Shown in pieces: positions 3,676 through 50,640 of a stretch of 52,600 bases of DNA. This stretch comes from a virus (taxonomy: Duplodnaviria > Caudoviricetes), in IMG/VR virus record IMGVR_UViG_3300026279_000223, positions 1-52,600 of that record, one strand, 5' to 3'. The stretch's first letter is position 1. The number at the start of each line of letters is the position of its first letter. The position numbers and the translations under genes were made by a program. A model generated the notes under the pieces. That model did no database searches, was not told the DNA's origin, and saw only the letters and a program-made list of their open reading frames with translations.

Positions 3676-5142
3676 TTAGTCTTGTTCTTTGTCAACCGGT
3701 TTTAGTCTTTTACTTAATACAAACGTTCTATTAGGGTTGACACTAACATTCATTTGTCTCATTAAATCTCTATTGATTAATAAATCTGATCCTGATCTTG
3801 GTCTATTATCTAATCCTACTTCTACATCTTTATAGGTAAAACCATTAAAGGTTAAATCTAATAAAATTGTAGGTCTAATTTCTGAAGGCTCATCATCTGC
3901 ATTTGCTCTGAAGATTTTACTTTCACCAAATTTAGGTTTCTCATAAGTTTTATTATTATATTTCCATTTAACAATTTTCTTATCTGATAAAATTTCATCG
4001 GCATGTAAAGCACATGCTTTTGATCCGTTACCACTATCAAACTTAGCTCTAACTTTATCTACATCTGAAACATCAACAGTTTCTAACCAACCACATTCTA
4101 TAAGTGATTGTCTATCCCAATGACTTCTATCTTGAATATAATCAACAAGATACTCCATCATTTTTTCTCCATCTATTCTACCAGATGGTTCTGGATCAGA
4201 ATAATAATCTTTGTATTGGTAACCTTGATAGTCAGCACCTGATCCTGGACTACCATTGATTTCTAAAATGTATGGTTTTTTATTGTTTACTATGTGATCA
4301 ACTCCTACCATATATGCTTTTGAAGCTCTTGAAGCTTTTAAAACTAATTCGTGTTCTTCGTCACTTAAAATATAAGGCATTGCCTCAGCGCCTCTATGTG
4401 TATTTGATCTAAAGTCATATGAGCTGTGTATTCTTTTTGTACTTGCAATAATTTTGTTATCTAATACAAAAGTTCTTACATCAAACTTAACGTCCATAAA
4501 TTCTTGTATTAATAGTTCAGCATTTAATTTCCACATAGCCTGTACAGTTGCAACAAGACCCTCATAACTTTCAATTTTAATTACTCCGATACCTTGTGTA
4601 CCTGTTAATGTCTTTAAGATAAGTGGAAACTTACCACCAATTTGATCTAAACCTGTTCTTATATTATTCTCGTTAGATATAAAAGCAGTTCTAGGTGTAG
4701 GTATACCATTCTTTTCAAATAGTAAAGCTGATGTTAATTTATTGTCACAAGTCAGCATAGCTGCTCTTGTGTTTAACATAAATGATTGTGAATTTTGAAA
4801 GGCAGATATTAAAGAAAGGCCAGCTTCATCTTGACAAGCACCACCTCTTGTTATAACAACAGTATCTTTACCAACAAACTCATGCTCACCATTTTTACCG
4901 TCATAATTATAGACAGTTAATGTATTTTTTTCTTCGTCTTTACCTGTGATGATTGTACTATTGGTGTTTACTATAACACATTTAGTCTTTTGTTTTTTAC
5001 ACGCCTTTTCTATAAGTTCAACAGTTGAATCCTTGTTAGGTTTATCTGAATCATTTATAGTAAGTATCGCAACCGTAATAGGTTTATCTTTACGGCCTGG
5101 ATTCTGTTCGGTTATGTAATCTCTAAACTTTGGTATCTGCAT
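3676..5142 (-). CDS. rimK: RimK-family ATP-grasp ligase fused to a C-terminal RimB/retropepsin-like protease domain
   Basis: GTQGIGV, IQEF, FRSNTHRG, GVD, LEINGSPG ATP-grasp motifs; C-terminal CGWLE...AKFDSG...LLINRD. Confidence 0.88.
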   Translation of the reverse strand: MQIPKFRDYITEQNPGRKDKPITVAILTINDSDKPNKDSTVELIEKACKKQKTKCVIVNTNSTIITGKDEEKNTLTVYNYDGKNGEHEFVGKDTVVITRGGACQDEAGLSLISAFQNSQSFMLNTRAAMLTCDNKLTSALLFEKNGIPTPRTAFISNENNIRTGLDQIGGKFPLILKTLTGTQGIGVIKIESYEGLVATVQAMWKLNAELLIQEFMDVKFDVRTFVLDNKIIASTKRIHSSYDFRSNTHRGAEAMPYILSDEEHELVLKASRASKAYMVGVDHIVNNKKPYILEINGSPGSGADYQGYQYKDYYSDPEPSGRIDGEKMMEYLVDYIQDRSHWDRQSLIECGWLETVDVSDVDKVRAKFDSGNGSKACALHADEILSDKKIVKWKYNNKTYEKPKFGESKIFRANADDEPSEIRPTILLDLTFNGFTYKDVEVGLDNRPRSGSDLLINRDLMRQMNVSVNPNRTFVLSKRLKPVDKEQD

Positions 5143-5970: not shown

Positions 5971-6046
5971 TGGTGCCCTTTGTCCGAGTCGAACAGACGA
6001 CCTACTGATTACAAATCAGTTGCTCTACCAGCTGAGCTAAAAGGGC
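5971..6046 (-). tRNA. tRNA-Thr(UGU), canonical
   Basis: 76-nt cloverleaf: AGCTCAGCTGGTAGAGC D-arm, CTGAT-TTGTAA anticodon arm, GTTCGA T-loop, encoded CCA. Confidence 0.96.
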
Positions 6047-7739: not shown

Positions 7740-8405
7740 TTAAAATTCAGAGTCAGGTTCTAATGCGATCCAATATTGGACGTTCTTACTTCTAGATATG
7801 AAACTAGATATTTTTGCTTTTGATATAGCTACATCGTAATCATCTGGTATCATTTTAAAGTTTTCTGATTTAAAATAACCAGTAAACTTAACATCTGATT
7901 TTCCAATTACTGTAGATACTTCGTTTGAAGATTTGTTTTTCTTATCAGTAGCCACTAGTTTAATATTAGTACCGTCACCAATTACAGCAACATCTGGTAG
8001 ATTTAAAGTAGTCACACCTTTGTGTAATTCTGTCAGGTCATCATTCTTTAATTGAAATGTGACATGCTTATCTGGCATATTAATCTTATTAGGTGTAAAG
8101 ACAGTAGACTTATCAGAAAAGAAATACTTAACTGATTTATTACTGTTTTTAGATTCACTGATAGTCATTGAAGCACCACCATTAAATTTAAGTTCAGGAC
8201 TTTTAAACAAATCCAATGATCTTAAAAATTGTGGTAAATCATAGATAGCAAACTCACTATCAAATTTTTCTTTTATCTCAGCTTCTGCTAAGATATTTCT
8301 CATATTGGAAATAGTTTGTATTTTATTTCCAGGCTTAATTAAAATATTCTGATTAATATCAGAAAAGTTTTTTAACATAGCAATTGTGTCTGTGCTAAGG
8401 TTCAT
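7740..8405 (-). CDS. gp45: Sliding clamp (start corrected to 8405)
   Basis: MNLSTDTIAMLKNFSDINQ, FAIYDL, YWIALE; AGGAG SD precedes ATG 8405, while the ORF-track start lies inside a tRNA. Confidence 0.95.
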   Translation of the reverse strand: MNLSTDTIAMLKNFSDINQNILIKPGNKIQTISNMRNILAEAEIKEKFDSEFAIYDLPQFLRSLDLFKSPELKFNGGASMTISESKNSNKSVKYFFSDKSTVFTPNKINMPDKHVTFQLKNDDLTELHKGVTTLNLPDVAVIGDGTNIKLVATDKKNKSSNEVSTVIGKSDVKFTGYFKSENFKMIPDDYDVAISKAKISSFISRSKNVQYWIALEPDSEF

Positions 8406-8438
8406 TATATATTCACTCCTATTCATCATTATTATTTT

Positions 8439-8512
8439 TGGAGCGGATACTTGGTACTGCCCCAAGTTCTAAAGATTGGAAATCTCTCATAATACTTTTA
8501 TACGATATCCGC
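8439..8512 (-). tRNA. tRNA-Gly(UCC) with non-canonical D- and T-loops
   Basis: GCGGATA/TATCCGC acceptor stem, U73 + CCA, AGAGA-TTTCCAA-TCTTT anticodon arm, CTTGG-GGCAGTA-CCAAG T-arm; D-loop lacks GG. Confidence 0.88.
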
Positions 8513-8519
8513 ATTATTG

Positions 8520-8548
8520 ATCCTATACTAGATCAATTAAAATGTCAA
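8520..8548 (-). promoter_or_regulatory. Sigma70-type promoter directly ahead of tRNA-Gly(UCC) and gp45
   Basis: TTGACA-N17-TAGGAT, 7 nt before tRNA position 1. Confidence 0.8.
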
Positions 8549-10707: not shown

Positions 10708-10914
10708 CTATAAATTTCTCTCACGTATTTTCTTTGCTTTTTTACTATTAGCAATCATTTCTTTTTTCTTCCTACGTTTTTTAGCACTTGGTTTTTCATA
10801 ATACATTTTTTCTTTATATGTTTTAAGAAAATTATCTTTTAAATATTTTCTTTTTAAAACTCTTAAAGCCTGTTCTACGTTATTGTTTCTTACTTCTATT
10901 TTTATTCCAGCCAT
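10708..10914 (-). CDS. rpsU: Ribosomal protein bS21
   Basis: IEVRNNNVEQALRVLKRK...YYEKPSAKKRRKK. Confidence 0.92.
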   Translation of the reverse strand: MAGIKIEVRNNNVEQALRVLKRKYLKDNFLKTYKEKMYYEKPSAKKRRKKKEMIANSKKAKKIRERNL

Positions 10915-16101: not shown

Positions 16102-16848
16102 TTACAGTTTTTCCATTGCTTTCTTATGTTTTTCGTAGGCTTTCATCTGTTTAGCGGCTTTCTTATAAGCCATATCTAACTTCAATTTAGATACACCATC
16201 TGTAAAATTCTTGCCTAATATATGATCGTATTCATGTTGGAATATTCTACTAATCATACCATCAAGGTGGCCTTCTCTTAATTGTCCATCTTCATCTTCG
16301 TATTTGACAACTACTTTTCTAGGCCTTTCTATTGATAAGAATACAAAAGGAAAAGTTAAACAGCCTTCTTTCATTACTACTGTTTCCTCACTTTTTGTTA
16401 TTATCATTGGATTAAAACAAGCCATCTTTAACCCTTTTTCTATATCTGGATGATCGCCTATCGTAAACATATTGAAAGGTAATCCAACCTGATTACAGGT
16501 TAAACCTATTCCACCATATTTCTTCATTGTTTTGAACATGGCGTCTGCTAGTTCTTTTCTATCTTTAAACTTCATTTCACAATCAGGATAATCTTCTTCT
16601 AACATATCATCACTGAAAGGTGCTATTGCTGAATTGACTCTAGGGTCTCTCGGTGGTACCAGTTTTAGGGTATTTTTATCCTCTAATACGGGTGTTTCCG
16701 TCTCCTTAATTTTCTCAACCTTTTCTTGCTTTTTTGGCTTATTTTTAAAGCCTTGAGCCTTGTCAATATAGTCATTTTGCTTTTTCGGTAACTTGTCTAT
16801 TTTACCTTTATTACCGCCAAGCATTACATTTTTTTGTGTACTTCCCAT
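16102..16848 (-). CDS. def: Peptide deformylase with Lys-rich N-terminal extension
   Basis: GGIGLTCNQVG, EGCLT, QHEYDH. Confidence 0.95.
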   Translation of the reverse strand: MGSTQKNVMLGGNKGKIDKLPKKQNDYIDKAQGFKNKPKKQEKVEKIKETETPVLEDKNTLKLVPPRDPRVNSAIAPFSDDMLEEDYPDCEMKFKDRKELADAMFKTMKKYGGIGLTCNQVGLPFNMFTIGDHPDIEKGLKMACFNPMIITKSEETVVMKEGCLTFPFVFLSIERPRKVVVKYEDEDGQLREGHLDGMISRIFQHEYDHILGKNFTDGVSKLKLDMAYKKAAKQMKAYEKHKKAMEKL

Positions 16849-29608: not shown

Positions 29609-30253
29609 CTAGAGTTTTTTAAGAAACTGTTTAAAGACGTCCGCCTTAGCTTCTGCTAAACGTAGTCTTTTTGCTGTTTCTATGTCTCGTTTCCAAGCGC
29701 TTAAGTCTTGTTCCACAAGAACACCATTGTCCCAAACCCACTCTTTACTCTCCATTATGCCTTCAACGAAAGCGTCTGGAGCGCTTGGATCAGCGACAAT
29801 ATCAGCGGCTGTAGCTAAATAAAAATCTCTACCTACATAATTAACACCACCTCTTTGTTGCAAAGACCCCATACCTCTTGAAGATACTCCTAATTGAGCA
29901 CCCTCATCAATAAGACCTTTTACAATCTTACCGTATGGTGTATTCATTATCTTTGCCTCACCAATAAAATTCGGACCATCTGGATATAAACTAGTGATCA
30001 TATGTGATACTCTCTCCAAGTTAACTGTTGGACTATCTGGATGACCAAGTTCTCCAAATGCTCTCTTTTTATTGATAAATTCTGCGTTATATCTTGTTAC
30101 TTCTTTGTCTAAAATCTGTTTTTCATATACTCGTCCATTTCTATTTTTGATTTCAGATTGTAAGAAGACGCCTCTAATTTTATAATTCTTTTTACCATTG
30201 TTTTCTTCAACAATGTATTCTGCGTTTTGTACTTCTTCGGATATTAGCTTCAT
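29609..30253 (-). CDS. gp21: Prohead protease
   Basis: NRNGRVY, AFGELGHP, LGVSSRGMGS, DIVADPSAPDA. Confidence 0.97.
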   Translation of the reverse strand: MKLISEEVQNAEYIVEENNGKKNYKIRGVFLQSEIKNRNGRVYEKQILDKEVTRYNAEFINKKRAFGELGHPDSPTVNLERVSHMITSLYPDGPNFIGEAKIMNTPYGKIVKGLIDEGAQLGVSSRGMGSLQQRGGVNYVGRDFYLATAADIVADPSAPDAFVEGIMESKEWVWDNGVLVEQDLSAWKRDIETAKRLRLAEAKADVFKQFLKKL

Positions 30254-42407: not shown

Positions 42408-43304
42408 TTACGAAGCGTTACCTATGATTGTTTTTAATGTAGTACCACCACTGTTTTTAATCAGTAATGTAACCGCTGAACTGAAATTACTTGAATCAAT
42501 TGTGTCAACTTGAGCACCTTTTGATCCTGTAAATCCAACAACACCTTGGTTTGATAATTCAACCCACTGTACACTATTACCATCGTTGTAGTAAAAGTAT
42601 TGTACGCCAGTTGCGTTGTCTACCCAAATGTCTCCTTCTCCTACGCCAGATGTTGGCGGTGAAGCAGCTGTTGTAATATCAAGATTACCTTCAGATCCAG
42701 TGTAACCAATGTCACCTTTTGATCCTGTGTAACCAATGTCCCCTTTAGAACCTGTGAAACCTTTTGATCCAGTGTAACCAATGTCACCTTTTGATCCAGT
42801 GTAACCAATGTCCCCTTTAGAACCTGTGAACCCTTTAGAACCAGTGAAACCAATGTCTCCTTTTGATCCTGTGAATCCAATATCACCTTTTGAACCAGTG
42901 AAACCAACATCCCCTTTAGAACCAGTGAAACCAATTGTACCAGAAAGGTCAGATACGAATGAGTATGCTGAACCGTTCCATAGGTATAATCTAGAGTTTT
43001 CTGCGTCTGTTAGAGAGCCGTTTTCAATGATAGCAAATTCACCTGTAGCTATGCCACTTGGTGATGTATCTGCTGATAAGTTAGCGACACTAGTATAAGT
43101 CTTCGCAATGTTGAAGCCTAAACCAGTAGCACCTTTAGAACCTGTATACCCGATATCACCTTTAGAACCAGTATAACCGATTGATCCAGTGAAACCTGCT
43201 GTAAGAGGCTGTAGCGCCCAACCATTACCGTTCCATTTCCACTGACGTGTGCCTAGTGTGTATAGATCGTTTAATGAGGGCGACGATGGAAAGTTTATTG
43301 CCAT
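42408..43304 (-). CDS. Collagen-like fibre protein
   Basis: Repeated G[FY]T-GSK-GD[IV] triplets; modules shared with neighbouring fibre genes. Confidence 0.85.
   Translation of the reverse strand: MAINFPSSPSLNDLYTLGTRQWKWNGNGWALQPLTAGFTGSIGYTGSKGDIGYTGSKGATGLGFNIAKTYTSVANLSADTSPSGIATGEFAIIENGSLTDAENSRLYLWNGSAYSFVSDLSGTIGFTGSKGDVGFTGSKGDIGFTGSKGDIGFTGSKGFTGSKGDIGYTGSKGDIGYTGSKGFTGSKGDIGYTGSKGDIGYTGSEGNLDITTAASPPTSGVGEGDIWVDNATGVQYFYYNDGNSVQWVELSNQGVVGFTGSKGAQVDTIDSSNFSSAVTLLIKNSGGTTLKTIIGNAS
42694..42837. repeat. 72-bp near-perfect tandem duplication inside 27/18-bp collagen-coding repeats
   Basis: 42694-42765 versus 42766-42837, about 3 mismatches. Confidence 0.85.
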
Positions 43305-43400
43305 TTTATTTGTCTCCTAATTTATTGTTTTTTTTAATTAAAAAATTCAATATCCCTACATAATTTAATCTTGCAAGAAAATTTTAACGTTTTCTGCTTC

Positions 43401-43408
43401 TATTTATA
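43401..43408 (-). promoter_or_regulatory. T4 late promoter
   Basis: TATAAATA upstream of ORF 42408..43304. Confidence 0.75.
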
Positions 43409-43457
43409 ATATATAAACACTACAAAACACTTTGTTTTCTAGTATTTTTCAATTTTA

Positions 43458-45086
43458 TTAAGCGCCAATGGTACCACCGTTTAGGCACCACCCTTGACCA
43501 TCCCATATACAAGAGAAAGTATTGGCAAAAACGCCACCAGTTGTATCTAATCTCCAGTTATGTGATGTCCTTAATTCTGTTGCACCAGTACCAATTATAA
43601 CAACTTTTGCATTAGCGACAGTAATGTCACTATAAGTTGATGTTGTTATGCCTGATTTATAGAACAATAACTCTTGTCCTATATAAGTGCCGTCTGCAAG
43701 TGTATAGTTTATACCTGCTGTAATAAAGTGATTACGTTTTGTTATATCTAAAGCACCTGTGTTATCTTTAGTTTCGTATTCACTTGTTGTTATATGAGAG
43801 CCTGCTATTGTTAGTTTATCATTTGTAAGTCCGATACTTACTTCATTTGCTCCCATTTTTAAACTGTTATCGCTTAAGAATAAGTGTCTAACTTTTCTAT
43901 CAGCACTACCTATGTCATATGTTTCATGTGCTACAGGTAATAAATGTCCACTGTTTGTAATATCCCAACGATCCGTTCCTTCCGTTCTAAATGTGACTTC
44001 GCCATCTGTACCTGTGTCTGCTACTGATACTGAACTATTGCCGGCAGTTATAGAACTTCCACCTGAACCAGCAGAACCAGTAAAACCAACTGTACCAGTT
44101 GAGCCTGTAAATCCTACTATACCACTATTTGCTAATTCTACCCATTGATTACTATTGCCGTCATTCATGTAGAAGTATTGAATACCTGTTGCGTCATCAA
44201 TCCAAACGTCACCAATACCTGCTGAACCTGGAGGTGTTGAAGCAACTGCTACATCTAAATTTCCTTCCGAACCTGTATAACCAATTATACCTTGATCGCC
44301 TTTTGATCCTGAATAACCAATTGATCCTGTATATCCTAAATCTCCTTTTGATCCAACATATCCAACGGCGCCAGCTGTACCTGCTGTACCTTTTGATCCT
44401 GTGAAACCTACACTACCAATATCTCCTTTTGATCCTGAATAACCTATAGGTCCTTCGCCACCATCTGAACCTTTTGATCCTGTGAAACCTACACTACCAA
44501 TATCTCCTTTTGATCCTGTAAAACCAACTGTACCGGCAGCTCCACTATCTCCTTTTGATCCTGTATAACCTAAATCTCCTTTTGATCCTGAATAACCTAT
44601 AGCACCATCGTCACCAATTGATCCTGTATAACCTTTATCTCCTTGGTCACCTTTTGATCCTGAATATCCTACATCGCCTTTTGATCCTGAATAACCAATA
44701 GCACCTACTGATCCTGTAAAACCAATGGCACCTGCTGAACCAGTATAACCTGCTCCACCACCTGAACTGAATAATGACCAATTAGCCTCAGCATTAGGAA
44801 CTGCACCTGTAATATTACTTCTTACTTCACTACCTTGAAGTTTGTAAGTATAATATTTGTCACCTGTTCTTGTATATGAACCAGCAGTATATGTGTTCTT
44901 AACATATACTAACATACCCTCCTGGATTCTTGCACCTGGAATATCTGTTAATCTATCGCTGGCGTCACCAGAAATACTTTGAAGTGTACCTCTAACTTCC
45001 GTATCTAAAACGATAGGCGAGTTAGTGCCGGTACTCCATGTACCTGGCCAGACGTTTCGGGTTAAACCATCGTAGTTGCTAGCCAT
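43458..45086 (-). CDS. Collagen-like fibre protein with globular ends
   Basis: About 160-aa GXY region built on G[FY][ST]GSKGD; GHLLP...TYDIGS...RHLFLS fibre motif. Confidence 0.85.
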   Translation of the reverse strand: MASNYDGLTRNVWPGTWSTGTNSPIVLDTEVRGTLQSISGDASDRLTDIPGARIQEGMLVYVKNTYTAGSYTRTGDKYYTYKLQGSEVRSNITGAVPNAEANWSLFSSGGGAGYTGSAGAIGFTGSVGAIGYSGSKGDVGYSGSKGDQGDKGYTGSIGDDGAIGYSGSKGDLGYTGSKGDSGAAGTVGFTGSKGDIGSVGFTGSKGSDGGEGPIGYSGSKGDIGSVGFTGSKGTAGTAGAVGYVGSKGDLGYTGSIGYSGSKGDQGIIGYTGSEGNLDVAVASTPPGSAGIGDVWIDDATGIQYFYMNDGNSNQWVELANSGIVGFTGSTGTVGFTGSAGSGGSSITAGNSSVSVADTGTDGEVTFRTEGTDRWDITNSGHLLPVAHETYDIGSADRKVRHLFLSDNSLKMGANEVSIGLTNDKLTIAGSHITTSEYETKDNTGALDITKRNHFITAGINYTLADGTYIGQELLFYKSGITTSTYSDITVANAKVVIIGTGATELRTSHNWRLDTTGGVFANTFSCIWDGQGWCLNGGTIGA

Positions 45087-45087
45087 A

Positions 45088-47082
45088 TTATGCTCCTATC
45101 TCCACGTAAGTTGTTCCCGGTTGTAAAGTTATTCCATACATATGGTAACTCTCTCCTGTTTGTCCTGATAATGGTGAATCAGGTACTAGTGTAATTGTTC
45201 CACCATCTGTTGTACCAACATCACTTAATAATCCTGCACTTGCACCTGTTTTAAATGTACCAGGTTGAGACGCTGAATTTCTAACACAAAACCAAAATGC
45301 TCTAGGGTTGGAATCTGTATTGTTAACTGCTTGTACTGAAAATGTTCTTGTTTGATTTGCCAACTCATTTACTGCTGATTCAAAACCTGTAGATTCAGAA
45401 TCATCAATTATATCAGTAAGAGTTGGAGTTGTTCCAACTCCTGTTGTCCAGATCCAGAAAGACGGATATGTAAATGAGGCAGATACGTTGCTTGTTGTTG
45501 ACGACTGATCTGTCGTATATGAGGTGCCTGTTACATCAACAGGTCTTGTGAACGTACACGTATTTGAGATTGTACGAGTATCGCCTGTATTGTCTTTATG
45601 TATAGGTGATGTAAATGTAAATGTCCCACTCACATAACCGCTTCCTGAATTTGTACTCAAAGTACCACCACTTGCTGTTAAAGCATGTGAAGTGTTACTT
45701 GAATTTGATATACCACTTACGTTAGTTGAGTACGATGTACTAGCATAAGATTTTAAAAATGTTTTACCACTAACATTTGATTTAGATAAACTCATTGACG
45801 CTGTTGACCAGTTTACACTGAACGATGTATCAGAAGCTGTGTATTCTGATTCACTGCCGTCATTATGATTAAATTTAACTGTTGCACCAGCCGAACCTCC
45901 AGTACGACTAGTTGATATTGGTCTAATATATGAGTTTGAATTGTCAACAGTGAAAGTTTGATTCCAATCTACACCACCTGCTGGTGTTTGTGATTTACTT
46001 CCTGCTGAATAATTTGTTAAAGTACCGTTAACACTTCCACTTGTTTGAGTGATAGAGTAAACTGAACTTATAAAGTCTGATGTAACGTCACTAGGGTTAT
46101 CTACTGATACAGAAAATCCTGTTGCTGGTACGTCCCAATTATTTGAACTTGATGGATTTGCTGAAGCTGAAAATGAAGGAGTAAAAGTTGCTAAAGTTAA
46201 TCTTAAAAGATCACCTGAAAATTCTGCTGTTCTAATTGTAGAAGTTGTACCACCATCTGTATATCCTGTAAGTGTTCTATAATCTCCTGAAGTTGTGAAT
46301 ACTAATGGAGAACCTGAACCTGATCCTGCTGATCCTGTAAAACCAACTGCACCAACTGAACCTGTAAATCCTGCTCCTGTAGAACCAGTAAAACCAACAG
46401 CGCCATCGGCACCATCAGCGCCTGCAGCTCCGTCAGAACCTTTTGATCCTGTATAACCTAAATCTCCTTTTGATCCAACATATCCAACTGCACCTTGTGA
46501 GCCTGCATAACCACCACCTGGTCCTTGTTCACCACGTGATCCTGTAAAACCTGCTCCAGTTGATCCTGTAAAACCAACGGCGCCGGCTGTACCTGCGTCA
46601 CCTTTTGATCCTGAATATCCAATTGCACCGGCAGCTCCATCAGCACCATCTGATCCATCGGCACCGGCAACTCCTCTTGATCCTGTAAAACCAACTGCAC
46701 CGGCAGCTCCACTATCTCCTTTTGATCCTGTGTATCCTGCTCCTGTTGATCCTGTAAAACCAACTGAGCCGTCTGATCCATCAGCACCTGCTGATCCTGT
46801 GTATCCTGTTCCTACTGATCCAGTAAAACCTACTGTACCTTGATCACCTACTGATCCAGTGAAACCTGCTACACCTTGAGCACCAACTGATCCTGTATAA
46901 CCACCACCTGGTCCTTGAGCACCAACTGATCCTGTGAAACCTTGTGAGCCTGAATAACCACCTGGTGATCCAGCAGCCCCTTGTTCCCCTTTAGAACCTG
47001 TGTATCCTGAAGTACCAGCCGATCCTGTATATCCTCTGGTACCTAAACCTACACGGACTCCGGCATTCTTAATTACTGGCAT
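45088..47082 (-). CDS. Collagen-like fibre protein with Ser/Thr-rich beta C-terminal region
   Basis: About 240-aa GXY region (GFTGS, GYTGS, GAD, GSD) followed by a S/T-rich domain. Confidence 0.85.
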   Translation of the reverse strand: MPVIKNAGVRVGLGTRGYTGSAGTSGYTGSKGEQGAAGSPGGYSGSQGFTGSVGAQGPGGGYTGSVGAQGVAGFTGSVGDQGTVGFTGSVGTGYTGSAGADGSDGSVGFTGSTGAGYTGSKGDSGAAGAVGFTGSRGVAGADGSDGADGAAGAIGYSGSKGDAGTAGAVGFTGSTGAGFTGSRGEQGPGGGYAGSQGAVGYVGSKGDLGYTGSKGSDGAAGADGADGAVGFTGSTGAGFTGSVGAVGFTGSAGSGSGSPLVFTTSGDYRTLTGYTDGGTTSTIRTAEFSGDLLRLTLATFTPSFSASANPSSSNNWDVPATGFSVSVDNPSDVTSDFISSVYSITQTSGSVNGTLTNYSAGSKSQTPAGGVDWNQTFTVDNSNSYIRPISTSRTGGSAGATVKFNHNDGSESEYTASDTSFSVNWSTASMSLSKSNVSGKTFLKSYASTSYSTNVSGISNSSNTSHALTASGGTLSTNSGSGYVSGTFTFTSPIHKDNTGDTRTISNTCTFTRPVDVTGTSYTTDQSSTTSNVSASFTYPSFWIWTTGVGTTPTLTDIIDDSESTGFESAVNELANQTRTFSVQAVNNTDSNPRAFWFCVRNSASQPGTFKTGASAGLLSDVGTTDGGTITLVPDSPLSGQTGESYHMYGITLQPGTTYVEIGA

Positions 47083-47191: not shown

Positions 47192-49234
47192 ATGATTTCT
47201 ATTGCATTTTTAGACATAATTGGTCTACCTTATGATGGAGACACTTTGAAGAAAAGAGGTCTTGGCGGATCCGAATCTGCGACTCTTTTAATGGCCAAAG
47301 AACTAACTAAACTAGGTTTTAATGTCACTATCTTTAATAACTGTAATCGTGATCCTTCTCTTGCAACCGAAGGCACCTATGATGGTGTACGTTATATAGA
47401 TAATACTATTTTAGATTATAAACATGATTTTAAATTTGATATTGTTATTTCTTTAAGAACAATCATTCCTTTTCTACCACCTAATCTATACAAACAGTTT
47501 CAAGAATACAATCCTCAAAGATATTCAGCAATCAAAGCTAACGCAAAACACAAAGTAGTTTGGATGCACGATACATTTGCAAACGGCGATCTTGTGTTAG
47601 AAGACCTTTTAGTACAAGGTCACATAGATGAAGTATTTACTTTATCAGATTTCCATTCAACTTACGTAATGAATTGTGATCATGGTAAAAAAAGAAATAT
47701 GGAAGTATTAAAACATAGATTTTTTCAAACAAGAAATGGAATAGTAACCTATAAAGATGAAGTTGATATAAGAAGAAAAGACCCTTACTTATATGTCTTC
47801 AATGCAGCTTTCACAAAAGGTATGGCACCTTTAGTTAACGATATATGGCCAGAAATTAAAAAAAGAATACCTGAAGCTAAATTAATATGTATTGGAGGAT
47901 TTTATGTCTTCCCAGGAAAAAAGATGGATGCTCAAGGAGAAGAATGGACAAAAATGTCCCAAGATCCAAAGAATAAAAATTTAGGTATAGAATTTACAGG
48001 TGTTATAAAACAATCTGAAATAGCAGATATATTAGAAAGAGCAAGTTTTAAATTATTTCCAGGTGCCTTTCCTGAAACATTTGGTATATCATCTTTAGAG
48101 GCAATAGCATATAATACACCTATCATCGGTACACGTTTTGGTGCTTTAGAAGAAACAGCAGTTAGTGAAGCTTGTTATATGATAGACTATGCAATAGAAC
48201 CAAATTCCTTATTTCCATTTATTCCAAAAAAGAGACAAGTAGAAAAATTTGTACAAGCCACAATAGCAGCTCATCATAATAGATATTTACACCAACAAAA
48301 ACAATATGCTTGTAATCAAATTAAAGGTGTCGTTGGTTGGGATAGTGTAGCACTACAATGGAAACAACATTTATATAGAACATTAGGAGAATATTTACCA
48401 ATAGATGAATATAGAAAAGTATCTCATATCAATCATAGAGTTAAAAAAGTATTTGGTAGAAGATTTTCAAATATAGAAGATAGTTATTTACCTAGAAAAA
48501 AAGAACAAAGAATAGTTATAATATCTCCTACTTACAATTCTGAAGCATACATACAACAATGTATTAAATCAGTTGCGACACAAGATTATGATAATTACCA
48601 TATGATTGTAATTGATGACGCCTCTACAGATAAGACATATGAGAAAGCCTGTTCCTTTGTGGAAAATTTTAGAAGTGATTTAATAACAGTAATTAAAAAT
48701 GATGAAAATAAAGGAGCTGTTAGAAATCAAATAGAGTCTATAAGAAAATATTGTAAACCAGATGACATAGTTATGTTTTTAGACGGTGATGATTCTCTTA
48801 TAAATGATAATGAGATATTTCAATTTTATAATAATCTCTATGATGGCACTACAGAATTTACTTATGGGTCATGTTATTCAATGGTAGATAGAATACCTTT
48901 AATAGCACAAAACTATCCAGAGGAAATAAAACAAAAGAAAGAATACAGAAAATACAAATTCAATTGGAATATGCCATACACACATTTAAGAACATTTAAA
49001 GCAGGACTTTTAGATGGTCTTGATGATAGTAATTTCCAAGATGGAAGTGGAGAATGGTATAAAGCTGGTGGAGACGGTTCTATATTTTATTCTCTTATAG
49101 AACAAGCTGATCCAAAGAAAGTAAAAGTTGTATCAGATATAGTATATAATTATAATGATATAAATCCTCTTAATGATTATAAAATTAACAGTGAAGTACA
49201 AACAAAAAACGCAAATAGGATAATTAACCAATGA
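47192..49234 (+). CDS. Bifunctional glycosyltransferase (GT-B/GT4-like plus GT-A/GT2)
   Basis: GLGGSE, WMHD, PETFGISSLEAIA; then ISPTYN, IDDASTD, FLDGDD. Confidence 0.9.
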   Translation: MISIAFLDIIGLPYDGDTLKKRGLGGSESATLLMAKELTKLGFNVTIFNNCNRDPSLATEGTYDGVRYIDNTILDYKHDFKFDIVISLRTIIPFLPPNLYKQFQEYNPQRYSAIKANAKHKVVWMHDTFANGDLVLEDLLVQGHIDEVFTLSDFHSTYVMNCDHGKKRNMEVLKHRFFQTRNGIVTYKDEVDIRRKDPYLYVFNAAFTKGMAPLVNDIWPEIKKRIPEAKLICIGGFYVFPGKKMDAQGEEWTKMSQDPKNKNLGIEFTGVIKQSEIADILERASFKLFPGAFPETFGISSLEAIAYNTPIIGTRFGALEETAVSEACYMIDYAIEPNSLFPFIPKKRQVEKFVQATIAAHHNRYLHQQKQYACNQIKGVVGWDSVALQWKQHLYRTLGEYLPIDEYRKVSHINHRVKKVFGRRFSNIEDSYLPRKKEQRIVIISPTYNSEAYIQQCIKSVATQDYDNYHMIVIDDASTDKTYEKACSFVENFRSDLITVIKNDENKGAVRNQIESIRKYCKPDDIVMFLDGDDSLINDNEIFQFYNNLYDGTTEFTYGSCYSMVDRIPLIAQNYPEEIKQKKEYRKYKFNWNMPYTHLRTFKAGLLDGLDDSNFQDGSGEWYKAGGDGSIFYSLIEQADPKKVKVVSDIVYNYNDINPLNDYKINSEVQTKNANRIINQ

Positions 49235-50640
49235 AAAAAATATTAATAGCCATACCAACAAACAAGTACATAGAACCAGATACATATAAAGCAATATATG
49301 ATCTAATTATTCCAGAAGGATTTAAAGTAGAGTTTCAATTCTTTTATGGATATCAAATAGACCAAATAAGAAATCTAATAGCACATTGGGGAGAACATTA
49401 TGATTATTTGTTTTCTGTAGACAGTGATATATCTTTTGATAAAGATACATTATCTAAAATGCTTGGACATGATAAAGATATAGTTTCAGGTCTTTATATT
49501 CAAAGAATACCAGGAACTCACTCATTGGAAGTTTATGAACAAATACCAAATGGTGGCTCTAGACGTATTCCATGGGAAAAAATTAAAGATCATCCTTTAG
49601 TAGAGATAGTAGCTTGTGGTATGGGTTGTGCTCTTATTAAAAGTAAAGTATTAAAGGCAGTTGGTTATCCTTATTATACTTACCATTCGGCACTAGATCA
49701 TAATAATACATTATCCGAAGATGTTGATTTCTGTAGAAAAGCAAGAGGAAAAGGATTTAAAATTTGGGCTGATACTACAATACGTTGTAAACACACAGGT
49801 AACAGTACGTTTGAAGTAGGTCAAATAATGAAAAATCGTAATATTGAAGAAATCAGACAACAAGAAAGTGTTAATCGTGTAAATGATTTAGGTCACGATA
49901 CAGCAAAATATAAAACAGAGGTTGAAGGCAAAGGTGCCAAAGATACTAGATTTATTGATAAGACTGCAAAAGCAGTTAAGAGAGTTTATCCAGGTATTGA
50001 TCCTGAAACTGGAAAATATGCATTAGAAGTAAATGAAGGAGAGAAATTTACAGGTGATAGTGTAGAGTATACTTCATTAGCCGAAGCAGTACAAAGATTA
50101 AAACATCCTATTGGTGCTAGTGTAGAACTCGGCGTTAGATTAGGATTAGGTAGTAAAACAATTATAGACGCATACAGACATTACCACCCTAAAGTTAGAT
50201 TAAATCATTTAGGTATAGACCCATATGGTAATATTGATTATGCAGCTTCTGATAGTGTATTAGCAAGAAAGTTTAACTATGATAACTTAATGAGAAAGAC
50301 AACATTAATAAACTTTGCTGAAGATTATCCAGAGTTTCATTTAGTTAACTTTGAAGATTCAGAGTTTTTTAATAGATTTCACGATGGTTATCCTGTTTAT
50401 GAAGAACATAAACATATGATATCAAAATATGAACTTGTACACTATGACGGTCCACACGATACTAAAAGTGTTTTAAAAGAGGCCGTTTTCTTTAATCAAA
50501 GAAAAGCAGATCAAACAGTTTGGATATTTGATGATATTACAGGTTTAAGGTGGGATGCTTTAGCAGGATATATGAATAAATTCCAATTTCAACTTGTCAA
50601 TAAAGGTGAAAATAAAGCTGTATTTGAATATAACGCTTAA
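49231..50640 (+). CDS. GT-A/GT2-like glycosyltransferase fused to a SAM-dependent methyltransferase
   Basis: ILIAIPT, FSVDSDI, CGMGCALIK, SEDVDFC; then VELGVRLGLGS, GIDPY, VHYDGPH, IFDD. Confidence 0.87.
   Translation: MKKILIAIPTNKYIEPDTYKAIYDLIIPEGFKVEFQFFYGYQIDQIRNLIAHWGEHYDYLFSVDSDISFDKDTLSKMLGHDKDIVSGLYIQRIPGTHSLEVYEQIPNGGSRRIPWEKIKDHPLVEIVACGMGCALIKSKVLKAVGYPYYTYHSALDHNNTLSEDVDFCRKARGKGFKIWADTTIRCKHTGNSTFEVGQIMKNRNIEEIRQQESVNRVNDLGHDTAKYKTEVEGKGAKDTRFIDKTAKAVKRVYPGIDPETGKYALEVNEGEKFTGDSVEYTSLAEAVQRLKHPIGASVELGVRLGLGSKTIIDAYRHYHPKVRLNHLGIDPYGNIDYAASDSVLARKFNYDNLMRKTTLINFAEDYPEFHLVNFEDSEFFNRFHDGYPVYEEHKHMISKYELVHYDGPHDTKSVLKEAVFFNQRKADQTVWIFDDITGLRWDALAGYMNKFQFQLVNKGENKAVFEYNA

Follow-up and report, generated by a model that had tools for sequence, protein, structure and literature searches.

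The tRNA-Gly(UCC) gene at positions 8439–8512 (minus strand) of the window, the 52,600-nucleotide stretch of phage DNA analysed here, is real and intact, and its elbow looks compensated rather than decayed. Nearly all tRNAs are held to have G18, U54, U55 and A58, and this gene has A18, G54, G55 and G58 in place of the canonical elongator elbow. Compensation is suggested because, across 895 parsed tRNAs, A18 tracks G55, G54 tracks G58 and the G19-C56 pair stays. The explanation that we prefer, with a probability of about one half, is a conserved phage tRNA-Gly whose elbow changed in step and which would serve the ribosome, with a benefit from evasion or from independence of modification. It starts from what was observed directly, namely the gene, its promoter consensus, its conservation and its covariation.

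A tRNA-Gly gene missed by a standard scanner

The gene is 74 nt long, encodes its CCA end (8439–8441) and matches the Rfam tRNA model RF00005 with 39.4 bits (gathering score 29; E 9e-6). The minus strand of 8439–8512 folds into a cloverleaf (z −2.9; 1 of 200 shuffles equally good), and the plus-strand fold is not significant (z −0.88). The complete cloverleaf with glycine identity elements that the sequence-only reading had placed at exactly these coordinates is therefore borne out by Rfam, fold and parse, with the gene on the minus strand. The bacterial tRNA-Gly identity set comprises G1-C72, C2-G71, G3-C70, C35, C36 and U73. The gene bears the three acceptor-stem pairs and U73, and the set is complete in 62/62 sequences of the family, for which the 5′ GCGG was in the search pattern and the 3′ side and U73 were not. 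The general features of a tRNA are likewise present: a 7-bp acceptor-stem and D-, anticodon- and T-arms that covary in 59 homologues, U33, a purine at position 37, G53-C61, G19 opposite C56, and the CCA end.

The anticodon UCC (8478–8480, minus strand), which is flanked by U32, U33 and A37, is replaced by ACC in 27 of 120 homologous loci. The T-arm (8450–8466, minus strand) consists of the stem C49-G65, U50-A64, U51-A63, G52-C62 and G53-C61, predicted to be a weak EF-Tu binder, and the loop GGCAGUA (8455–8461, minus strand), which is confirmed as first noticed. The D-loop AAAAGUA (8493–8499, minus strand) had been described as lacking both G18 and G19; G18 is indeed changed to A18, which covaries with position 55, but G19 is kept opposite C56, giving AG where canonical tRNA-Gly has GG.

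The suspicion that standard scanners may miss the gene was correct for ARAGORN, which failed to report it at the default and at four lowered thresholds, and which detects 0/62 members of the family and 5/119 other GGCRG tRNAs compared with 379/382 canonical tRNAs. A tRNA-Thr(UGU) with a canonical elbow (5971–6046, minus strand), found by ARAGORN, Rfam (70 bits) and parse, provided an internal control. The two tRNAs are the only ones in the 52.6 kb and lie 2.4 kb apart, the tRNA-Gly gene standing alone rather than in a long operon.

Genomic context and promoter

The window is a piece of the genome of a T4-like marine phage (33% GC) with genes for gp43, gp44, gp45, gp62, RegA, gp23, bS21, Hsp20 and peroxiredoxin. 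Because the closest named relative of its gp45 is that of the SAR11 phage Mosig (in full, Pelagibacter phage Mosig EXVC030M), at 67% identity compared with 48% for those that follow, the host of the window phage is likely to be a SAR11 bacterium. The gp45 sliding-clamp gene (PF09116; 7740–8405, minus strand) lies downstream of the tRNA and is likely co-transcribed with it. Its Shine-Dalgarno sequence AGGAG (8416–8420, minus strand) is located in the 33-nt spacer after the tRNA CCA, in which no terminator-like site was seen. An apparent overlap of gp45 with the tRNA had been noticed in the ORF track, and the longest ORF does start at a TTG (8465) inside the tRNA; this is an ORF-caller artefact, however, and the real start is the ATG at 8405, conserved in relatives together with the Shine-Dalgarno sequence. 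A peroxiredoxin-type gene (PF08534; 8552–9100, minus strand) lies upstream, and in some relatives the tRNA is placed in front of a gene of this type instead of gp45.

A promoter of the gene's own had also been proposed. A sigma-70-type sequence, TTGACA-17-TAGGAT (8520–8548, minus strand), precedes G1 by 7 nt and scores 10/12 in a scan whose yield by itself does not exceed chance (15 sites against an expectation of 15.1); conservation supports the proposal, as 89 of the 98 distinct regions upstream of homologues contain this promoter, compared with 19 of 118 for canonical phage tRNA-Gly(UCC). The spacing to G1 is 7 or 8 nt in 67/98 of the homologous regions, from which a leader of 0–3 nt is predicted; about a tenth of homologous loci have leaders of approximately 10 nt. 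In the window (8513–8519) and its homologues, the 7–8-nt spacing with U at position −1 (88/98) could allow a leaderless start at G1. Among contigs from RNA libraries, X3, X4 and X8 enter the tRNA from upstream and X5 (8332–8503) spans most of the tRNA into gp45; these are contigs from 8 of 20 RNA runs, they carry no visible ends or modifications, and DNA carry-over is possible.

Several other genes of the window may be mentioned. Translation-related ones encode bS21 (10708–10914), a peptide deformylase (16102–16848) and a RimK-like ATP-grasp ligase (3676–5142). A DruA-like protein (PF14236; 14730–16061) is present in Mosig too, and a glycosyltransferase gene (GT2 and GT1) and a methyltransferase-domain gene (47192–50640, plus strand) run opposite to the general gene direction.

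Conservation in related phages

Among the best 80 viral gp45 loci, the tRNA is directly upstream in 45, every one with GGCAGUA, including all 42 loci at ≥81% gp45 identity. It is found somewhere in the available DNA of 47 of the 80, the remaining 33 showing no copy in the DNA available, and in none of the 80 was a canonical tRNA-Gly(UCC) or an intermediate form found at the locus. A pattern without a D-loop term gave 48 distinct matches at tRNA spacing, of which 47 are tRNA-like, all with AG in the D-loop. When the anticodon arm was unconstrained in the search, 120 loci were retrieved (93 UCC, 27 ACC; 59 distinct sequences). In the stems of these 59 homologues, 95.5% of 1239 cells are paired and 246 double-sided changes occur; none of 500 shuffles reached this level of pairing and no slid register comes near it. 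Random decay of the stems, which was to count against the gene, is thereby excluded. All five anticodon-stem pairs are 100% paired, each with double changes, and the D-stem is the loosest helix (77.5% paired), mostly through U13-U22. With the anticodon arm left free in the pattern, C35, C36 and A37 are still invariant in 59/59, and no base other than U (43) or A (16) occurs at position 34.

Approximately 230 viral stretches carry the gene, from a count of 46 ACC forms in IMG/VR and an estimate of about 180 UCC forms. Mosig (MT647606; 7779–7852 of our locus L636) has the same gene in the same place with anticodon ACC, annotated in GenBank as the hypothetical protein Mosig_000011; PMC8163748 makes no mention of Mosig. 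An origin from the host was considered and rejected: no Pelagibacterales title occurs among 56 genome matches to a pattern that required G52 and so would miss U52-A62 forms, and the loop GGCRGYA occurs in none of the 150 matches listed from 301 alphaproteobacterial genomes, with 116 further matches beyond the listing, a negative result that is independent of the unpublished genomes G245 and G045, which contribute 2 of the 150.

Covariation in the elbow

The elbow was compared with our own cloverleaf parser (score cut 25; 0 matches in five shuffles of the window) in 895 distinct tRNAs from loci L001–L633, a set enriched by search patterns and kinship whose counts are not population frequencies. 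Position 18 is A in 401/478 tRNAs with G55 (G in 4, ambiguous in 28, unassigned in 45) and G in 366/415 tRNAs with U55 (A in 2, ambiguous in 36, unassigned in 11). C56 is retained in 460/478 of the G55 tRNAs. Where G55 is accompanied by G54, the latter is paired with G58 in 181/183 and goes with A60 in 176/183. The 54:58 combinations in G55 tRNAs are U:A (196), G:G (181), A:U (37), C:A (31), A:A (15), C:C (9), U:U (6), G:A (2) and U:G (1). Neighbouring T-loops beginning with TGC, AGC or CGC, which were not selected by the patterns, follow the same A18 rule. The alternative elbow that had been postulated is thus upheld by covariation in the stems, at 18:55 and at 54:58.

Some variants were also seen. 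Array tRNA-Arg(UCG) genes (L331 5621, L359 2237 and similar ones) have a T-loop starting with CGA, in which A56 is possibly paired with U19, and A56 occurs in 16 G55 tRNAs. In the alphaproteobacterial array L360, U55 tRNAs with A54, G54 or C54 retain GG in the D-loop, and G54:G58 is found alongside U55 in 4 cases. A phage tRNA-Ile with a UAU anticodon (L248 587) has the GGCAGUA elbow, and tRNA-Gly(UCC) of Verrucomicrobia arrays (L322–L375) often has A73 rather than U73 (17/38 in the commonest class).

Because tRNAs for 16 amino acids show the G54/G55 form, both in phages and in long tRNA arrays, where it is mixed with canonical elbows inside single arrays, the GGCRGUA motif is neither borrowed from tmRNA nor special to glycine. 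When 185,579 genomes were scanned, 56 loci came up, and 33 of these are tRNA-Gly cloverleaves: 26 in Verrucomicrobiota, 3 in Alphaproteobacteria and one each in Bacteroidota, Chloroflexaceae, Actinomadura and a cyanobacterium. Those examined sit in long tRNA arrays, and a canonical housekeeping copy is present as well in 3 of 3 genomes checked. (An earlier, looser viral pattern had given 120 loci, most of them without a cloverleaf.)

The observed 54:58 pairs are largely those given in the available text of PMC2615604 as closing trans pairs of the T-loop motif (U:A, C:A, A:A, G:A, C:C and G:G). The available part of bioRxiv 2022.12.26.521914 describes T-loops in which an intercalated A bonds the G at position 2, as well as a GGAAG T-loop in rRNA. 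Compared at the sequence level with such loops (YGNRA or GGAAG), the covariation fits a G at position 2 and a trans pair at 1:5. The T-loops of FMN and cobalamin riboswitches (YGNRA) and of rRNA (GGAAG) share with the present tRNA the G at loop position 2, and would probably also share the intercalating A and an allowed G:G closing trans pair; they differ in that the sources, as available, set them apart from tRNA T-loops, whereas here the form sits in a tRNA elbow. The tRNA therefore probably uses a T-loop of riboswitch type and keeps the outer G19-C56 face, which according to the accessible portion of PMC4810234 is exposed and read by the ribosome and RNase P. No description of the A18:G55 swap was found in the main texts of open-access papers; the available texts of PMC7609411 and PMC7912444 are silent on it.

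Predicted affinity for EF-Tu

EF-Tu affinity was estimated with the additive model of Table 2 of PMC3239215, as far as that source was accessible, with a baseline of −10.1 inferred from rows of Table 3; because canonical T-loops were used to build the model, it may not hold for this one. The predicted value is −9.1 kcal/mol for the window and −9.26 on average for the family (59 scored of 62), compared with −10.5 for canonical tRNA-Gly in the set, −10.28 for an AT-rich phage subset (n 26) and −10.07 for array GGCRG tRNA-Gly. Bacterial Gly-UCC has a mean of −10.8 (sd 0.68 kcal/mol), a tight stem that the window is predicted not to share. G51-C63 occurs in 0/62 family sequences versus 68/109 canonical ones; the pair 51-63 takes five types in the family, never G-C, and G-C is common at 49-65 and 52-62. 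Counted by distinct stem haplotype, the means are −9.38 for the family (18 haplotypes) versus −10.29 for canonical tRNAs. Non-Gly G55 tRNAs deviate from their isotype means by −0.07 (n 272) and −0.13 (n 80), versus −0.01 kcal/mol (n 257); because they match those means as canonical tRNAs do, the G55 class as a whole looks ribosomal under this model. The family also has A15/A48 at the Levitt position in 61 of 62 sequences.

The weak predicted stem is the strongest result against a ribosomal reading of the tRNA-Gly, and lends indirect support to the non-ribosomal role that the sequence-only reading had offered as one option. A partner enzyme did not emerge: no Fem-like or other aminoacyl-tRNA-dependent transferase was found by Pfam in 37 proteins of the window and 66 of Mosig, many of the latter matching no family at all.

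Modification and defence

Judged from its bases, the tRNA cannot carry T54, Psi55 or Gm18, because the target bases are absent. There is a nuclease whose cut falls between T and Psi (PMC9086364, a review, available text), and phage tRNAs have been proposed to escape tRNA-directed defences (PMC10264068 and PMC11559606, available texts). The earlier proposal of defence evasion gains no support from the other tRNAs of these phages (Thr in the window; Pro, Arg and Leu in Mosig), which keep canonical elbows and argue against a blanket need to avoid modification or attack on the T-loop. Any pressure would therefore have to be Gly-specific, and this analysis identified no such pressure from a host enzyme or a defence. 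Evasion of a FaRel2-type toxin is ruled out, as all four acceptor-stem determinants are present (G1-C72, C2-G71, G4-C69 and Pu5-Py68) and the tRNA-Gly would therefore be a substrate for such a toxin. Defence-evading phage tRNAs (PMC10264068, and T5 cases cited in PMC11559606, as available) resemble the present one as phage isoacceptors unlike the host copy; the changes discussed in PMC10264068 are in the anticodon-loop, with no T- or D-loop mentioned in its available text, whereas in the present tRNA it is the elbow that has changed, and a matching defence was not identified.

Comparison with related RNAs

The body of the RNA is that of a canonical T4-type phage tRNA-Gly(UCC) (RF00005), with which it shares the 74-nt cloverleaf, G1-C72, C2-G71, G3-C70 and U73, the UCC anticodon, the encoded CCA, G19-C56 and G53-C61. 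It differs in having A18, G54, G55, G58 and A60 where the canonical form has G18, U54, U55, A58 and a pyrimidine at 60, and, as a family, in never having G51-C63, in A15/A48 and in an ACC anticodon in about a fifth of loci.

The description of GGCRGUA as the signature T-loop of alphaproteobacterial tmRNA holds in a small sample: 3 of 3 matches to the two-piece tmRNA model RF01849 have it (GGCGGUA in 2, GGCAGUA in 1) together with A18, the D-loop region showing AG in the register in which two canonical tmRNAs keep GG. The tmRNA papers examined give no T-loop consensus. In contrast to tmRNA, the present RNA has no tag frame and no G3-U70 (G3-C70 instead), is not permuted, and has a full D-arm and a glycine anticodon arm. 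A tmRNA fragment is ruled out by the lack of any tmRNA match in Rfam or ARAGORN, so that the likeness appears to be one of shared design on a tRNA-Gly body. The two-piece tmRNA of Mosig itself (L635 16468–16806) has the T-loop UGCAACU and the same AG in the D-loop region.

The Staphylococcus tRNA-Gly(UCC) species NP1–NP3, which are non-proteogenic and kept out of translation (PMC7826273, available text), are alike in being Gly-UCC with G55, no Psi55 and a T-stem weak for EF-Tu (−9.5 with the same model, compared with −9.1 predicted for the window). Their loops have U54 (UGC or UGU) where ours has G54 (GGC), their stems have A49-U65, U50-A64 and A51-U63 where ours has C49-G65, U50-A64 and U51-A63, and they have a Fem transferase partner, whereas none was found here, where in addition the anticodon switches to ACC.

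Long tRNA arrays, such as the trn operon of Nostoc PCC 7120 (PMC8421152, available text), likewise consist of accessory, mobile tRNAs, and many arrays of Verrucomicrobia, Chloroflexi and phages carry the elbow; here, by contrast, a single gene with its own promoter sits in a replication operon. The 26-gene Nostoc operon, on the delta plasmid, ends in a tRNA-Ile(GAU) with the D-loop AAAAGUG and the T-loop GGCAGUA (about 29835–29908 of our locus L378, minus strand), missed by ARAGORN, which lists 24 genes in the operon. The tRNA-Glu(CUC) of this operon has G55 too. In the accessible text of PMC8421152, 23 of the 26 operon tRNAs are charged in vivo, and the operonic tRNA-Ile(GAU) gives an aminoacylated band with aberrant migration. 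The latter is probably the gene parsed here, because no other Ile-GAU was found in the operon; the main text, as available, has no mention of G18, A18, G55 or the T-loop.

Decoding and codon use

An unmodified UCC anticodon with U32 reads GGA and GGG, unmodified A34 is very rare, and a glycine tRNA with A34 no longer discriminates the third base (PMC6103715, available text). GGU makes up 59% of glycine codons in the window and 69% in Mosig. C34, which is one transition from U34 and would read only the 3% of codons that are GGG, is absent at position 34 of the 59 distinct homologues, and this absence may favour decoding over mere charging. GGA use is 9.1% in phages with ACC and 12.3% in those with UCC. 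A codon-supply comparison showed hardly any difference, 0.870 for ACC and 0.846 for UCC (p 0.03 before any correction, Val reaching p 0.047), and loci without the gene stood at 0.881. In a quick gp45 tree, ACC is scattered (11 changes, of which strong branches force at least 2; recombination possible), and a single ACC lineage is unsupported. Three genes for collagen-like Gly-X-Y proteins (42408–47082; approximately 19.5% Gly and 11–14% Thr) hold 100 of the 287 GGA codons of the window. The two tRNAs of the window are for Gly and Thr.

Model and alternatives

In the explanation preferred here, the sigma-70 promoter would direct early transcription of the tRNA by host RNA polymerase, behind a leader of 0–3 nt. 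The tRNA would form the 5′ end of the gp45-gp44 message and be freed by 3′ processing, and would then be charged by host GlyRS. With the A18/G55 and G54/G58 swaps and G19-C56 kept, a normal L-shape is predicted, in which the T-loop would resemble that of riboswitches, having G at position 2, an intercalated A and a G:G trans Watson-Crick/Hoogsteen closing pair, and RNase P and the ribosome would still meet the exposed G19-C56 face. With U32, the UCC form would decode GGA and GGG, and the ACC form would decode GGU and probably all codons of the box. The phage would probably gain a supply of glycine tRNA that needs no T54, Psi55 or Gm18 and on which a host factor directed at canonical tRNA-Gly would act poorly; this benefit is the least supported step. 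tmRNA makes use of both EF-Tu and the ribosome. A ribosomal role is supported because alphaproteobacterial tmRNA does so with the same elbow and the Nostoc tRNA-Ile appears to be charged, and weakened because the EF-Tu stem is predicted to be weak, A15/A48 is present and UCC does not match the main codon GGU.

A working ribosomal tRNA is also assumed if the elbow is neutral, inherited from a mobile pool of array tRNAs, and the gene is kept for dose or for codon supply, as for the glycine-rich collagen-like proteins. The occurrence of this elbow in 16 isotypes, side by side with canonical ones within one array, the share of GGA codons in the collagen-like genes, the 33 of 80 gp45 loci without a copy in the DNA available and the canonical elbows of the other phage tRNAs agree with this possibility. 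We nevertheless regard it as rather unlikely, since no canonical or intermediate form occurs at the 80 loci (although a compensated change at several sites would be hard to revert) and since the elbow is confined, in our samples, to mobile or accessory tRNAs (the 33 cloverleaves from 185,579 genomes, with canonical copies alongside in 3/3). Far less probable is a mainly cis-acting RNA that serves as a tRNA-like 5′ cap or processing signal of the gp45-gp44 message. Its place directly between promoter and ribosome-binding site, with no terminator, and the contig X5 that joins tRNA to gp45 would suit such an element, but glycine identity, anticodon-loop and U73 are conserved beyond the needs of processing, the tRNA precedes other genes too, and relatives without it use a promoter of this kind to express gp45. 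That the gene is a pseudogene in decay or a cloverleaf formed by chance, to which the low Rfam score (39.4 versus 70 bits for tRNA-Thr) might point, is refuted by the compensatory changes, the invariant loops and the approximately 230 viral stretches, and its probability is negligible.

The departure from EF-Tu may instead be functional, the tRNA being charged but avoided by EF-Tu in convergence with the staphylococcal species, and acting as a glycine donor to a non-ribosomal reaction or as a toxin decoy. The predicted stem is 1.0–1.7 kcal/mol weaker than controls, with 51-63 never G-C in 62 sequences; G55 with a weak stem marks the staphylococcal class; among G55 tRNAs the weakness is specific to Gly; and the retained FaRel2 determinants would suit a decoy. 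We consider this unlikely all the same, given that the anticodon arm is strongly constrained with position 34 limited to U or A, that no transferase family appeared among the window and Mosig proteins, that an additive model from canonical T-loops may not transfer, and that family members are related, so that their counts are not independent (18 stem haplotypes). In its fullest form, which we hold to be similarly doubtful, a hidden, early-expressed tRNA-Gly of these T4-like phages would have evolved away from EF-Tu to become the first phage-encoded non-proteogenic tRNA, a glycine donor or decoy on a second elbow design shared with alphaproteobacterial tmRNA.

Implications

Since a standard scanner misses this compensated elbow, counts of tRNAs in phages and mobile arrays are too low, and alphaproteobacterial tmRNA with its odd T-loop becomes one case of a general design. 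Natural tRNAs that are unable to carry T54 and Psi55 make the need for these modifications testable. A cultured phage-host pair has the gene, namely Mosig on Pelagibacter HTCC1062, and its anticodon ACC for glycine is found very rarely in bacteria. Should the EF-Tu stem prove truly weak, this would point to a new function of glycine tRNA in the infection of SAR11, the ocean's most abundant bacteria, by phages.
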